A stretch of 64,000 nucleotides of DNA from Capsulimonadaceae bacterium (GTDB taxonomy: Bacteria > Armatimonadota > Armatimonadia > Armatimonadales > Capsulimonadaceae), in NCBI GenBank assembly GCA_965215505.1, contig OZ244065.1, forward strand, positions 3,616,001-3,680,000, given 5' to 3'. The notes under the pieces are model-generated. The model was not told the origin of the DNA and searched no databases. It saw nothing but the letters and a program-made list of their open reading frames with translations. Shown here one piece after another: positions 12,962 through 15,176 of the stretch (position 1 is the first letter of the stretch; the number at the start of each line of letters is the position of its first letter). Both the position numbers and the translations under genes were made by a program.

Positions 12962-13429
12962 TCTATTCTTAGCATAAGAGTCTAAATTCTTAGTAGTGAT
13001 AGTAGTAGGTGTGTGACTCACATGTGACTCAACGAATCCCGGCGGGGCCGATGTGCCCGGATCGCCCGGTTTTTGCCAGATTCCCGCGAGTCTCCCCAGG
13101 CGGTTTGACGACCTGGGGCTGGAATCGCTTAATTCCGAGAGTCACGCTGAGTCACAGTCGCCTGTGACTCAACTGTGACTCAACTGTGACTCAAGGCCGG
13201 ATTTTGTGACTCTGTGACTCTCGCGGATTCGTTAAGTCACAAAAGGTGGTCGTTGAGTCACACTATGTCACACTGAGTCACAGGTTGAGTCACAGGCTCT
13301 CGGCCCTAACCCCGGCGCTCGCGCCGGGGTTAGGGCCGAAACGACACGGCCTCGTGTTCTGTCACAGTGTCACACCTTCTGTCACACCTGTGACACAAGG
13401 CGCTTTTGTGTGACACAGCCTGTGACACT
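12962..13429. other. oriC: Putative replication origin (oriC) with non-canonical TGAGTCACA boxes
   Basis: Intergenic region immediately downstream of dnaA; ~19 GTCACA/TGTGAC cores, 9 perfect TGAGTCACA; TAG trios at 12991-13008; AT-rich 12962-12990. Confidence 0.75.
13300..13339. terminator. Perfect 19-bp stem hairpin downstream of dnaA
   Basis: TCGGCCCTAACCCCGGCGC-TC-GCGCCGGGGTTAGGGCCGA; no clear U-tract. Confidence 0.45.
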
Positions 13430-15176
13430 ACCCGCCCCGCTCGATCTCCTGCCGGATTCTGCCGATCAAGGACAGTATCTGCGGGTCCTCCTCGATCTCC
13501 TTCTGGAGACGCACGGCGGCGTGGACGATGGCCGTGTGACTCTTCAGGCCGAACGTCGCCGCAAGTGCGGACAGCGGCACGCCGCCCAGTTCTTTCGTCA
13601 GGTACATCGCCACCTGGCGCGCGAACCCGGCGTCGCCGTGCAAGCGCGTCGCCCGGTTGCTGCGCCCGCCGCCGGCCAGGATCTGGTCCCGCGAGACGCC
13701 CATCTGCGAGGCGACCGCGTCAATGATCCGGTCCACCGTCGGCCCGCCCGCGCTCATCGGCAGGCGCGGCGGCAGGACGAAGTCGCCATTGGTCGGCGGC
13801 GCGTGGTCCTCGGGATGAGCAGACGCCGACTCGCGTCCAAACCCTTCGCGCGGCGGCATCTGTTTGACGTAGTAGCTGCTCAGGACGTCTGAGGCGAGCT
13901 GCTTGGTGACGGGGCTGCGGGCCAGCGAGGCGTAGGCCATCAGCTTGATCAGGGCGCCCTCCAGGGAGCGGATGTTGCTCTGGATGAGGTTCGCCATGAA
14001 GGTGATCACGTCGTCGGGGATCGCCAGGTTCTCCAGAATGGCTTTGCGCTGGAGGATCGCCTCCCGCATCTCGAGTTCCGGCGGGGCGATGTCGGCGACC
14101 AGGCCGCACTCGAAGCGCGACTGGAGCCGCTCGTCCATCGCCTTCAGCTCGCGCGGCGAGCGGTCGCTGGTCAGGACGATCTGCTTGTTCATCTGGTGCA
14201 GGACGTTGAAGGTGTGGAAGAACTCTTCTTTGGTCTGCTCCTTGGAGGCCAGCATCTGGACATCATCCACCAGCCACACGTCCACGCTGCGGTAGGCCCG
14301 CCGGAAGTCCTCCATCTTCTTGTCGCGCAGGGCGGCCACATAGTGGTTCGTGAAGGTCTCCCCGCTGACGTAGGCCACGCGCGCCTGCGGCAGCATCAGG
14401 CGGATCTGGTGGCCGATGGCGTGAGCTAAATGAGTCTTTCCAAGACCTGGGCTGCCGTACAAGAACAGTGGATTATACGTCTTGCCGGGCGACTGCGCGA
14501 CGGCGACCGCGCCGGCCTGGGCGAGCCGGTTGGACTTGCCGACGACGAAGTTGTCGAAGGTGTAGCGCGGGTTGAGCGGCGAGGCGATCAGCTCATTGGT
14601 GAGCTGGCTGCGGACGCCGCGCCCGATGCTGCCGCCGCTGCCGCCCGCGTCCGACCCATCGGGGACCAGGGCGAGTTCGGACTGCCCGGCGGGGACCGGC
14701 AAGAGCGACTCGGGCGAGGGGGCGGGCCGGGCCAGCGGCGCGGCGGCCTGCTGCAACGGCAATGGCTGTTCGCCGAGGAGCGGCTGGACGTCGGGCGTCG
14801 AGATGACGAACCGGACCTGGACGGCGGGGATGTCCAGGAACTGCGCCAGGTGCAGGGCCAGGGTCTGGGCGTACTTGGCCTCGACGAAGGTCCGGGCGAA
14901 CGACGACGGGGCACCCAGGACGACGACCGGCAGGCTGCCGGCGGAGGGCGGGCTGTAGGAGAGCGGCTTGAGCGGGCGGAGCCAGTTGCCGATGGTCTGG
15001 GGGGTGGCCGACCCGGCCAGGGCGCGCAGGGTCCGCTCCCAGGCCTTGCGGAGCGCGGTCAGGCCCTCCTCCTCGCCCAGTTCCAGCTGCTGGTCCCGAA
15101 AAGACTGGTCTTTGAAAGACTGGTCTTTGAGGGGCTGGTCGGAGGCGTCGTCGCTGGGTGTCGGGTGGCTGCTCAC
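13428..15176 (-). CDS. dnaA: Chromosomal replication initiator DnaA
   Basis: LNPRYTFDNFVVGKSN, YNPLFLYGSPGLGKTHL, LVDDVQ, EEFFHTFN, RLQSRF, NIRSLEGAL, ARQVAMYL; GTG 15176 has AGGAAA RBS (alternative TTG 15209). Confidence 0.95.
   Translation of the reverse strand: MSSHPTPSDDASDQPLKDQSFKDQSFRDQQLELGEEEGLTALRKAWERTLRALAGSATPQTIGNWLRPLKPLSYSPPSAGSLPVVVLGAPSSFARTFVEAKYAQTLALHLAQFLDIPAVQVRFVISTPDVQPLLGEQPLPLQQAAAPLARPAPSPESLLPVPAGQSELALVPDGSDAGGSGGSIGRGVRSQLTNELIASPLNPRYTFDNFVVGKSNRLAQAGAVAVAQSPGKTYNPLFLYGSPGLGKTHLAHAIGHQIRLMLPQARVAYVSGETFTNHYVAALRDKKMEDFRRAYRSVDVWLVDDVQMLASKEQTKEEFFHTFNVLHQMNKQIVLTSDRSPRELKAMDERLQSRFECGLVADIAPPELEMREAILQRKAILENLAIPDDVITFMANLIQSNIRSLEGALIKLMAYASLARSPVTKQLASDVLSSYYVKQMPPREGFGRESASAHPEDHAPPTNGDFVLPPRLPMSAGGPTVDRIIDAVASQMGVSRDQILAGGGRSNRATRLHGDAGFARQVAMYLTKELGGVPLSALAATFGLKSHTAIVHAAVRLQKEIEEDPQILSLIGRIRQEIERGG

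Follow-up and report, generated by a model that had tools for sequence, protein, structure and literature searches.

The chromosome of this member of the Capsulimonadaceae appears to encode, beside its own origin of replication, a chromosomal initiator DnaA whose double-strand site has changed from TTATCCACA to (T)TG[A/T]GTCACA. We assign this reading, which draws on sequence comparison, a probability of roughly 0.8. Co-evolution of initiator and origin to a new specificity, as the original prediction proposed, is supported by comparison among relatives, by covariation of recognition motif and box, and by the presence of the changed boxes in the slot of a predicted unwinding module. Features of the locus are given in table 1; the window is the whole 64,000-nucleotide stretch that was analyzed.

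Table 1. Features of the dnaA-recF region (positions are those of the window)
Feature	Position	Strand	Description
recF	11818..12975	minus	mechanical ORF start 12975
AT-rich stretch	12956..12990	.	71% A+T over 12958-12992; window 63-73% G+C
DnaA-trio run	12991..13008	minus	CTA CTA CTA TCA CTA CTA on box strand
Tandem boxes TGAGTCACA-tg-TGAGTCACA	13012..13031	minus	adjoin trios; predicted box element of basal unwinding system
Box cluster I	13148..13294	both	11 boxes, 6 on plus and 5 on minus
GC-rich perfect palindrome	13302..13337	.	16-bp arms, 4-nt loop; between box clusters I and II
Box cluster II	13358..13429	both	6 boxes of [CG]TGTCACA type, 3 per strand; last overlaps dnaA stop codon
dnaA	13428..15209	minus	593 aa from TTG start; sole dnaA of the 6.18-Mb genome
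Domain IV	13431..13742	minus	helix-turn-helix DNA-binding domain, residues 490-593
Recognition helix 5 motif FGLKSHTAIVHA	13518..13553	minus	from alignment to E. coli DnaA
Helix 4 segment VPLSALAAT	13554..13580	minus	S547 at P423 position
Basic loop GGGRSNRATRLHGDAGF	13623..13673	minus	7 residues longer than canonical
Extended domain III-IV linker	13743..13862	minus	residues 450-489; ~36 residues longer than in outgroups
AAA+ ATPase domain	14094..14576	minus	residues 212-372; Walker A, Walker B, sensor I, Arg finger, and sensor II present

The dnaA Gene and Its Product

Whole-protein score, AAA+ motifs, domain I, and domain IV fold all identify the product as a DnaA. It scores 410.7 bits against TIGR00362 (cut-off 343.9) and 228 bits against Pfam Bac_DnaA (PF00308), and the N-terminal domain I is detected at residues 56-121 (PF11638, 27 bits; cut-off 24.6). 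Bac_DnaA_C (PF08299) reaches only 42.4 bits, relative to a cut-off of 31.5. The AAA+ motifs, said in the original prediction to be intact, were all located in the protein (GSPGLGKTH, VWLVDDVQ, LTSDRSP, RLQSRFECG, and SNIRSLEGAL), and the span given there for domain IV, 13428-13760, corresponds to its coding sequence plus the stop codon. The translated ORF reads ...GGGRSNRATRLHGDAGFARQVAMYLTKELGGVPLSALAATFGLKSHTAIVHA... at its C-terminus. A public 582-aa protein shares an identical domain IV with the window DnaA, which suggests that dnaA starts 11 codons further in. The one-contig genome has a single DnaA, as do the 10 other family genomes checked, each with one match at E<=1e-20.

Boxes between dnaA and recF

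In the gap between dnaA and recF, TCCACA is absent and 19 boxes share a GTCACA core, reading TGAGTCACA or TGTGTCACA. GTCACA is strongly concentrated here: 20 of 26 matches in the window fall in 12937-13426, and across the genome, with 1187 matches in total, the densest 600-bp interval contains 21 and the next densest 4. NTCACA sites within 12976-13428 carry G in 19 cases, C in one, and A or T in none; TCCACA is absent from the same interval and TTCACA from the origin. Allowing at most one mismatch, TTATCCACA is found three times in the window (2.32 expected) and never inside the origin region, and TT[AT]TNCACA never clusters at more than one per 600 bp in the whole genome.

Box cluster I consists of nine GAGTCACA, one AAGTCACA, and one ATGTCACA, and includes three direct repeats at 11-bp spacing. 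The palindrome that follows it has no T-run after it on the dnaA strand. Three positions of the box depart from the canonical sequence, namely 2 (T>G), 4 (T>G), and 5 (C>T), and the 3' CACA is kept. Position 3 is loose (A 55-60%, T 35-42%), and G2 is present in 75-88% of boxes in genera g1, g13, and g15 and in 52-70% in g2 and g18. T at position 1 makes up 39-75% in genera with a long basic loop versus 3% in g15, whose loop is short; the elongated loop may, in the window's genus, add the T-rich positions 0-1 to the site. As the boxes have three mismatches, they would not be called by canonical-box programs allowing at most two (judging from the excerpt of PMC8287927).

Conservation of the Predicted Unwinding Module

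A basal unwinding module is defined, in an excerpt of PMC8287927, by one or more boxes, trios with a 3'-GAT-5' consensus, and AT-rich DNA. Five of the six trios in the window are 3'-GAT-5' on the complement, and the run lies 3 bp from the proximal box. Provided that TGAGTCACA is accepted as a box, the locus thus has a box at most 16 bp from at least three NAN trios and an AT-rich flank, and the AT-rich stretch is likely the unwinding element. The arrangement resembles that of B. subtilis oriC as described in the same excerpt (boxes #6/#7 plus DnaA-trios; PMC8287927), which has tandem boxes, a spacer of at most 16 bp, at least three 3'-GAT-5' trios, and AT-rich DNA, but the box sequence differs. 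DnaA bound to the tandem TGAGTCACA boxes would oligomerize onto the adjacent CTA/3'-GAT-5' trios, and trio-bound DnaA would, as in the B. subtilis system, unwind the AT-rich DNA; the architecture is observed and the activity is predicted from it.

The module is shared with relatives. Tandem GAGTCAC[A/G] boxes, a gap of 0-3 bp, CTA-type trios (at least five trinucleotides), and AT-rich DNA are present at eight of nine g1 loci examined, and the same order is found in g2, g18, and one of two g15 loci. At four of six loci of the sister family, TTATCCACA or TCCACA fills that box slot. In the basal class, the single-strand trio motif may be shifted, with ATG-type runs instead of CTA. On the recF side, the RecF proteins of relatives start at the methionine of MHVTSL..., so the window recF likely starts at 12948. 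The dnaN gene is not beside recF and is located 610 kb away.

Substitutions in Domain IV

The four substitutions put forward as a rewired recognition helix (P>S, R>K, D>S, and T>A) are each seen in a phmmer alignment to domain IV of E. coli DnaA (1j1v), where 'vplsalaatfglkshtaivha' lies over 'hslpeigdafggrdhttvlha'. In E. coli numbering, the changed positions are P423>S547, R432>K556, D433>S557, and T436>A560, and the retained ones are H434 (H558), T435 (T559), and H439 (H563). Base contacts are attributed to R399, P423, D433, H434, T435, and H439 (PMC2533591, citing Fujikawa 2003); the helix is described as reading TnCACA and R399 as reading TTA (PMC5742627). These residues are taken second-hand from excerpts of PMC2533591, PMC7561715, PMC5742627, and PMC5043019, as a set of residues and not as residue-by-base assignments. 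The window DnaA departs from the set at P423>S and D433>S, and its counterpart of R399 is ambiguous, the basic loop being seven residues longer. In biased samples, S433 and A436 never occur among 63 diverse DnaAs, and occur seven and eight times, respectively, among 122 parsable sequences from the 150 best cluster representatives.

The fold of the domain seems to be preserved. An AlphaFold2 model of domain IV (mean pLDDT 84.8) has 3pvp, 8btg, and 1j1v as its best PDB matches and superposes on DNA-bound DnaA domains (3pvp, TM 0.88 and rmsd 1.8 A; 1j1v, TM 0.84). On this model, domain IV would keep the DnaA helix-turn-helix, and the CACA of the 3' half of the box, itself unchanged, would be read by the retained H434, T435, and H439. 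The box changes T4>G, C5>T, and T2>G covary with P423>S and D433>S, together with the neighboring R432>K and T436>A, and these substitutions are presumed to have caused them.

Two further features of the original prediction are real but unconnected to the change in box. In a MAFFT alignment, the basic loop is seven residues longer than in outgroups, and three Arg residues in it are invariant among long-loop relatives. Between the end of domain III and ARQ, the window DnaA has 86 residues versus 42-43 in five outgroups, which corresponds to a linker with about 36 extra residues, close to the ~40-aa insert that had been proposed. However, the longer loop is missing from genus g15, although g15 uses GAGTCACA, and inserts of variable length at the linker site also occur in the sister family, which has canonical boxes. 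Neither feature is therefore tied to the box switch. As neither covaries with box class, the longer loop and the linker insert are ruled out as its cause.

Covariation of Helix 5 and Box among Relatives

Relatives are those named in public records (Armatimonadota/Capsulimonadaceae). Among them, canonical G[RK]DHTT pairs with TTATCCACA, [DGN][IV][SD]HSA.S with ATTCAC, K[SN]H[TS][AS], the window's own class, with GAGTCACA, and NNRTA with GAGTCACG. All 20 FGLKSHTA relatives with a usable downstream flank have 10-24 GTCACA beside dnaA and 0-4 TCCACA; the 21st has three GTCACA in the ~360 bp of flank that is present. Conversely, seven of seven sister-family loci combine an [RK]DH[TS]T helix 5 (five are G[RK]DHTT; L025 has EKDHST and L031 GRDHTT) with 8-17 TCCACA and 0-4 GTCACA, and Fimbriimonadia have canonical motifs and TCCACA arrays. 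Genera g13 (FGCKNHTS) and g15 (FGCKNHSA) have 14 and 10-11 GTCACA, respectively. Genus g18 (FGCNNRTA) has no GTCACA and nine copies of CGTGACTC, that is, GAGTCACG. P423>S together with K-S/N at 432-433 coincides with T->G at box position 4, and H434>R with A->G at position 9. In the genomes searched, neither KSHTA with canonical boxes nor GTCACA arrays with RDHTT were found, in agreement with the proposed co-evolution.

ATTCAC arrays are present in class A (FG[DGN][IV][SD]HSA[IV]SHA), in g12 and g17 and more weakly in g14. Within 7 kb downstream of dnaA, no arrays were found in g12, g14, and g16; those of g12 and g14 adjoin recF instead. The g14 arrays are weak, and in genome G202 the sign change of sampled GC skew falls near dnaA (3.16-3.34 Mb) and away from the ATTCAC sites on the recF side (2.66 Mb). 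Genus g16 (G256) has a class-B motif and no array beside dnaA, with only one GAGTCACA, at a contig end beside recF. A scan of 401 phylum genomes for triple-GTCACA arrays matched 56 genomes; outside family f1, the matches listed are tandem repeats with identical spacers and not box arrays.

In a tree of domain III only, motif classes appear in nested order, and the GAGTCAC clade has a support of 100/98. Motif class and box class each require three changes on this tree. With treekit, there is only one independent pair, the three transitions being nested on one lineage, so the motif/box covariation has no statistical power. The FGLKSHTA motif is invariant in the 21 relatives, and domain IV is otherwise 55-78% identical to that of the window in a nine-sequence alignment; 46 domain IV columns are invariant among nine diverse clade members, the whole FGLKSH-TA stretch included. 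The proposed specificity switch is supported by the covariation, though not as one event, at least three nested ones being indicated. The predicted route within one family leads from the canonical box through a TTCAC-core box and GAGTCACA to GAGTCACG in one genus. We put at about even the odds that, within one family, the initiator and all of its origin sites went through three or more changes of specificity, in the nested order TTATCCACA -> (G/C)ATTCAC -> TGAGTCACA -> GAGTCACG, with each step marked by helix 4/5 substitutions at base-contact positions.

Position of the Origin and GC Skew

Gene-strand bias switches at ~3.35 Mb, the single 16S gene is at 4.11 Mb on the plus strand, and the S10 operon and rpoB are at 2.04 Mb on the minus strand. 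These orientations fit an origin near 3.3-3.63 Mb. The polarity of GC skew is opposite to that expected from an origin at 3.63 Mb: cumulative G-C has its minimum near 5.75-0.05 Mb and its maximum at 3.28 Mb, and the reversal persists after plus and minus genes are separated. In congener G021, sampled skew around the same module has the normal sign (mean -0.008 to the left and +0.019 to the right; 10 + 10 stretches, a weak signal). The 16-mer parS consensus, allowing up to two mismatches, has no match in the genome.

Alternative Explanations

The changes in domain IV could be lineage drift accompanied by relaxed specificity, such that only the CACA/TCACA core is read via H434, T435, and H439, and the "GAG" prefix is kept for another reason, for example DNA shape or a second protein. 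The three kept contact residues do match the unchanged 3' half of the box, position 3 is loose, and basic loop and linker vary freely among genera with one box. Yet positions 4 and 5 are strict, with G in 19 of 20 origin NTCACA sites and no TCCACA, and G2 is common in g1, g13, and g15 and less so in g2 and g18. The helix-5 motif is invariant in the 21 relatives despite the divergence of their domain IV, and further changes in it, in g18 and in class A, coincide exactly with those of the box. We therefore regard drift as unlikely. Outright degeneration of domain IV, with specific double-stranded DNA binding lost and initiation achieved via the AAA+ domain and accessory factors, is highly improbable given the 46 invariant columns (FGLKSH-TA included), a confidently predicted fold that matches DNA-bound DnaA domains, and a highly ordered array of one 9-mer adjoining the gene. 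What speaks for degeneration is the low Bac_DnaA_C score (42 bits) and the rarity of the domain, which matches only 472 of 1.84 billion cluster representatives at E<=0.001 and only three at 1e-10.

Many unrelated factors of other organisms bind TGAGTCA-type motifs, and the GTCACA arrays might likewise be the target of another lineage-specific protein, in which case DnaA would act at other sites or need no specific boxes, and the true origin would lie near the skew minimum at ~5.75-0.05 Mb. GC-skew polarity fits an origin near coordinate 0 and not one at 3.63 Mb. Against this, the arrays lie precisely where the box-trio-AT-rich module has its boxes and are oriented like TTATCCACA in the sister family; at this spot near dnaA they stand in for canonical arrays, and the genome lacks a second GTCACA cluster (next best 4). 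Moreover, gene-strand bias, rRNA, S10 operon, and rpoB would all be head-on if the origin were near 0, and the skew of G021 points, weakly, the same way. Binding by another protein is accordingly quite improbable, and a DnaA of changed specificity acting at the dnaA-recF array remains the preferred reading.

Comparison with Known Systems

With the canonical DnaA/R-type box system of E. coli and B. subtilis (TTATCCACA or TTWTNCACA), the window shares the four-domain DnaA, the domain IV fold, H434, T435, H439, the 3' CACA, and many boxes on both strands beside dnaA. It differs in P423>S, R432>K, D433>S, and T436>A, in box positions 2, 4, and 5, and in lacking a canonical origin box. The 12-mer box of Thermotoga maritima is longer than the window's and unrelated in sequence. 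The T. maritima DnaA, in which a single Arg of the contact set remains conserved according to the excerpt of PMC7561715, is nevertheless a precedent for contact residues and box both being off canon (compare PMC10316083). Unlike it, the window still has a 9-10-mer site with a CACA core, and intermediates survive in sister genera.

Epsilonproteobacterial DnaAs have S435 and S438 and footprinted boxes with a TTCAC core, TCATTCACN in H. pylori (excerpt of PMC5043019). In these bacteria and in the window, T is fixed at box position 5 and helix-5 substitutions accompany a changed box. The likeness is closer in class-A relatives (g12, g14, and g17), which have an ATTCAC core, with TTCAC at positions 4-8, and S435/S438. 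The window instead has GTCAC at those positions, with G and not T at position 4, keeps T435, and has V438, and its S433 contrasts with the D-H pair kept in Epsilonproteobacteria. In a limited literature collection, nothing relevant was found on a DnaA with TGAGTCACA, GAGTCACA, or TGTGACTCA, on dnaA or the replication origin of Capsulimonas or Capsulimonadaceae, or on inverted GC skew of bacterial chromosomes, and nothing pertinent on DnaA-box coevolution.

Implications for Recognition and for Origin Finding

To our knowledge, the way in which DnaA recognizes its box is usually regarded as almost invariant among bacteria. Origin finders depend on the canonical 9-mer, and residue-to-base rules come from two crystal structures and from footprints in a few species. 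Tools that require canonical boxes would miss or misplace origins in these genomes, and in the window's genome GC skew would also mislead origin finding.

In this clade, box position 4 has lost the T that is conserved elsewhere and the architecture of the unwinding module is kept, stepwise intermediates are retained in sister genera, and class A has independently arrived at the combination of S435/S438 and a TTCAC core seen in Epsilonproteobacteria. Together, these make the recognition code directly testable with few proteins and oligonucleotides. The finding prompts the question of how an essential protein and its ~20 sites can change together with viability kept. The surviving intermediates could represent a natural mutational path from which the recognition code of DnaA can be read.

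An altered DNA-binding domain in an otherwise conserved initiator

The single-contig, 6.18-Mb genome has one copy of dnaA. Its product matches the whole-protein model TIGR00362 at 410.7 bits (cut-off of 343.9) and the AAA+ domain model at 228 bits, and the match of its C-terminal helix-turn-helix domain is low (42.4 bits; cut-off of 31.5). As had been predicted, the AAA+ motifs (Walker A, Walker B, sensor, and Arg finger) are all preserved and domain IV, the C-terminal DNA-binding domain, is altered. To obtain residue equivalences, domain IV was aligned by phmmer with that of E. 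coli DnaA (1j1v); the alignment pairs 'vplsalaatfglkshtaivha' with 'hslpeigdafggrdhttvlha'. Four residues are substituted, each as quoted in the prediction (E. coli numbering; P423>S547, R432>K556, D433>S557, and T436>A560), and H434, T435, and H439 are retained. According to passages of PMC2533591 and PMC7561715, bases are contacted by R399, P423, D433, H434, T435, and H439, and a passage of PMC5742627 assigns 5'-TnCACA to the recognition helix and 5'-TTA to R399. An AlphaFold2 model of domain IV (mean pLDDT of 84.8) superposes on the DNA-bound DnaA domains 3pvp (TM 0.88) and 1j1v (TM 0.84).

The domain is unusual. As a query, it retrieved 472 of 1.84 billion cluster representatives at E ≤ 0.001 and three at 1e-10. 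Among 63 diverse DnaAs, a sample biased by how it was drawn, position 433 is D in 46, N in 10, and S in none, and position 436 is T in 60 and A in none. Among the 150 best representatives, also a biased sample, S433 occurs in 7 and A436 in 8 of 122 parsable sequences. A limited literature search found no papers linking DnaA to the GTCACA-core box described below or to Capsulimonadaceae. The best match to the domain, with five matched stretches, is a 673-aa protein of the representative library (P0090) built of DnaA-domain-IV-like repeats, roughly five or six in tandem; a P-loop (AAA+) motif was not seen in it by eye.

Genes for DnaA vary in other ways among relatives. Many in the same genus (g1; L015-L024; P0008, P0012, P0015, and others) have an intein within the Walker A motif (GLGK|C...HN|TH) that carries a LAGLIDADG_3 (PF14528) homing-endonuclease domain, resulting in ORFs of 830-1000 aa; the dnaA gene in the window is intein-free. 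In L143 (genome G320) and L146 (G325), a copy of the dnaA 3' end, including part of domain IV, follows the intact gene at a distance of a few hundred bp, with small inserted genes in between, which suggests insertions into the 3' end of the gene with duplication.

A single array of altered boxes with the layout of an unwinding module

GTCACA is clustered once in the genome (21 per 600 bp; four in the runner-up window), and a genome-wide search found no cluster of canonical boxes.

Features of the dnaA-recF region (window coordinates)
Feature	Position	Strand	Description
GTCACA-rich interval	12937-13426		20 of the window's 26 GTCACA matches; 1 inside recF, 19 between recF and the dnaA stop codon
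Tandem boxes	13012-13031		two TGAGTCACA
Eleven boxes	13148-13294		GAGTCACA in most
Palindrome	13302-13337		perfect, GC-rich, between two box clusters; 16-bp arms, 4-nt loop; no T-run after it on the dnaA strand
Six boxes	13358-13429		[CG]TGTCACA
dnaA	13428..15209	-	ORF encoding a 593-aa DnaA

The logo of 20 window sites and 292 sites from relatives reads t-T-G-[A/T]-G-T-C-A-C-A and that of the sister family (f2) reads g-T-T-A-T-C-C-A-C-A. Compared to the latter, the window-type site departs at positions 2, 4, and 5 and retains CACA. Position 4 is G in 19 of 20 NTCACA sites inside the origin region, supporting a DnaA box specificity that would be shifted rather than relaxed. Outside the origin, the genome has 39 T[GT][AT]GTCACA sites, including a pair at 3023023/3023046. 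These may be DnaA-regulated, with 27 of 39 falling outside a stringent ORF set that covers 70% of the genome, although the ORF calls are crude.

On the box strand, the array reads TGAGTCACA-tg-TGAGTCACA-cac-CTA CTA CTA TCA CTA CTA, followed by 71% A+T. This is the layout of the basal unwinding module as outlined in a passage of PMC8287927, in which tandem boxes are followed, across a spacer of no more than 16 bp, by three or more trios of 3'-GAT-5' consensus. With GAGTCAC[A/G] boxes, the layout is present in eight of nine g1 loci examined, in the related genera g2 and g18, and in one of two g15 loci; four of six f2 loci have it with TTATCCACA or TCCACA boxes. The patterns used did not match it in g13, g16, or five loci of class A (genera g12, g14, and g17). 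The new box thus takes the place of the canonical one in the layout. Gene order dnaA-array-recF is kept in all 10 loci of the window's family (f1) that were checked and have dnaA linked to the array. Upstream of recF in four class-A loci (L159, L160, L161, and L162), the trinucleotide run beside ATTCAC boxes, read on the box strand, is ATG ATG ATG instead of CTA CTA and is immediately preceded by a (C/G)TCAC(G/C) site; the single-strand trio motif may also have shifted in these relatives.

Recognition helix and box change together across the family

Relatives were drawn from 41 genomes searched, including that of the window. All 21 with FGLKSHTA[IV][VA]H[AG] were examined, and 20 have 10-24 GTCACA and 0-4 TCCACA near dnaA; the remaining one has three GTCACA on a contig flank of only ~360 bp. 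One additional locus stops short of domain IV. In seven f2 loci, helices are of the G[RK]DHTT type, with 8-17 TCCACA and 0-4 GTCACA. When 185,579 species genomes were scanned with the back-translated FGLKSH pattern, the matches listed were confined to this clade. In a phylum-wide scan of 401 genomes, triple GTCACA arrays are present in 17 of 17 g1 genomes, counting that of the window, and in 21 of 28 f1 genomes, not counting it. Matches listed outside f1 were rejected as box arrays because they are simple tandem repeats.

The f1 genera without triple GTCACA arrays are the most telling. Class A pairs helix 5, the recognition helix, of FG[DGN][IV][SD]HSA[IV]SHA with arrays of (G/C)ATTCAC that are evident in g12 and g17 and weaker in g14; those of g12 and g14 adjoin recF and are unlinked from dnaA. 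Genera g13 and g15 pair FGCKNH[TS][SA] with GAGTCACA, and g18 pairs FGCNNRTAVTHA with GAGTCACG. Genus g16 has FGCKNHTA and a single GAGTCACA next to recF, where a contig ends; a box array beside dnaA was looked for and not found. An outside parallel comes from Epsilonproteobacteria: according to passages of PMC5043019, most of their DnaAs have S at 435, S is also frequent at 438, and the footprinted boxes to which these proteins bind have a TTCAC core that is strictly kept. The pairing in class A is the same.

A tree of domain III (AAA+) only, and thus independent of the trait, has the topology (Fimbriimonadia,(f2,(g17,g12,g14,(g16,g2,g13,g18,g15,g1)))), with support of 100/98 for the inner clade. 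Motif class requires three changes and box class likewise three, but they are nested on a single lineage and provide one independent contrast, so no significance test is possible. The original prediction, that initiator and origin co-evolved to a new specificity, is supported by these comparisons and extends to a nested series.

Neither insert tracks the switch. The ~40-aa insert predicted ahead of domain IV is real (~36 additional residues) but was rejected as a correlate, as the linker is also expanded in canonical-box f2 (68-100 residues versus 42-43 in outgroups). The longer basic loop is likewise present (+7 versus outgroups). Its insert is largest in g13 (+8), followed by g1 and g18 (+7), g2 (+5), and class A (+4), and is absent (0) from g15 and g16; it was rejected because g15 lacks it yet has GAGTCACA boxes. 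T is favored at site positions 0-1 in long-loop genera and is only 3% at position 1 in short-loop g15, the one hint that loop length could be linked to T at these positions.

Is the array an active origin?

Module architecture counts for an active origin at the array. Genes are 57% minus left of ~3.35 Mb and 55% plus right of it, the sole 16S gene is at 4.11 Mb (+), and the S10 operon and rpoB are at 2.04 Mb (-), which together fit an origin at ~3.3-3.63 Mb. Cumulative G-C counts against this location: it climbs between 0.05 and 3.28 Mb, stays level up to 4.3 Mb, and then declines until 5.75 Mb. Such a polarity would place the origin near coordinate 0, and the pattern remains when plus and minus genes are analyzed separately. 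Congener G021 has the normal sign of skew around the same module, weakly, in twenty sampled 20-kb stretches. The anomaly probably lies in the skew of the window's genome and not in the placement of the origin.

Relative to the array, GC skew is inverted, with the plus strand G-rich at 0.05-3.28 Mb and C-rich at 4.3-5.75 Mb; coding strands are C-rich. The interval between dnaA and recF lacks dnaN, which is 610 kb from dnaA (C1:3017858-3018505, +). ParB-family genes are at 3.297, 3.765, and 2.163 Mb.

From sequence, we infer the binding of DnaA to these boxes and the assignment of specific residues to bases. The system is a variant of the known DnaA-box system and not a new kind. The Capsulimonadaceae series is of value as a natural experiment in DNA recognition by DnaA.
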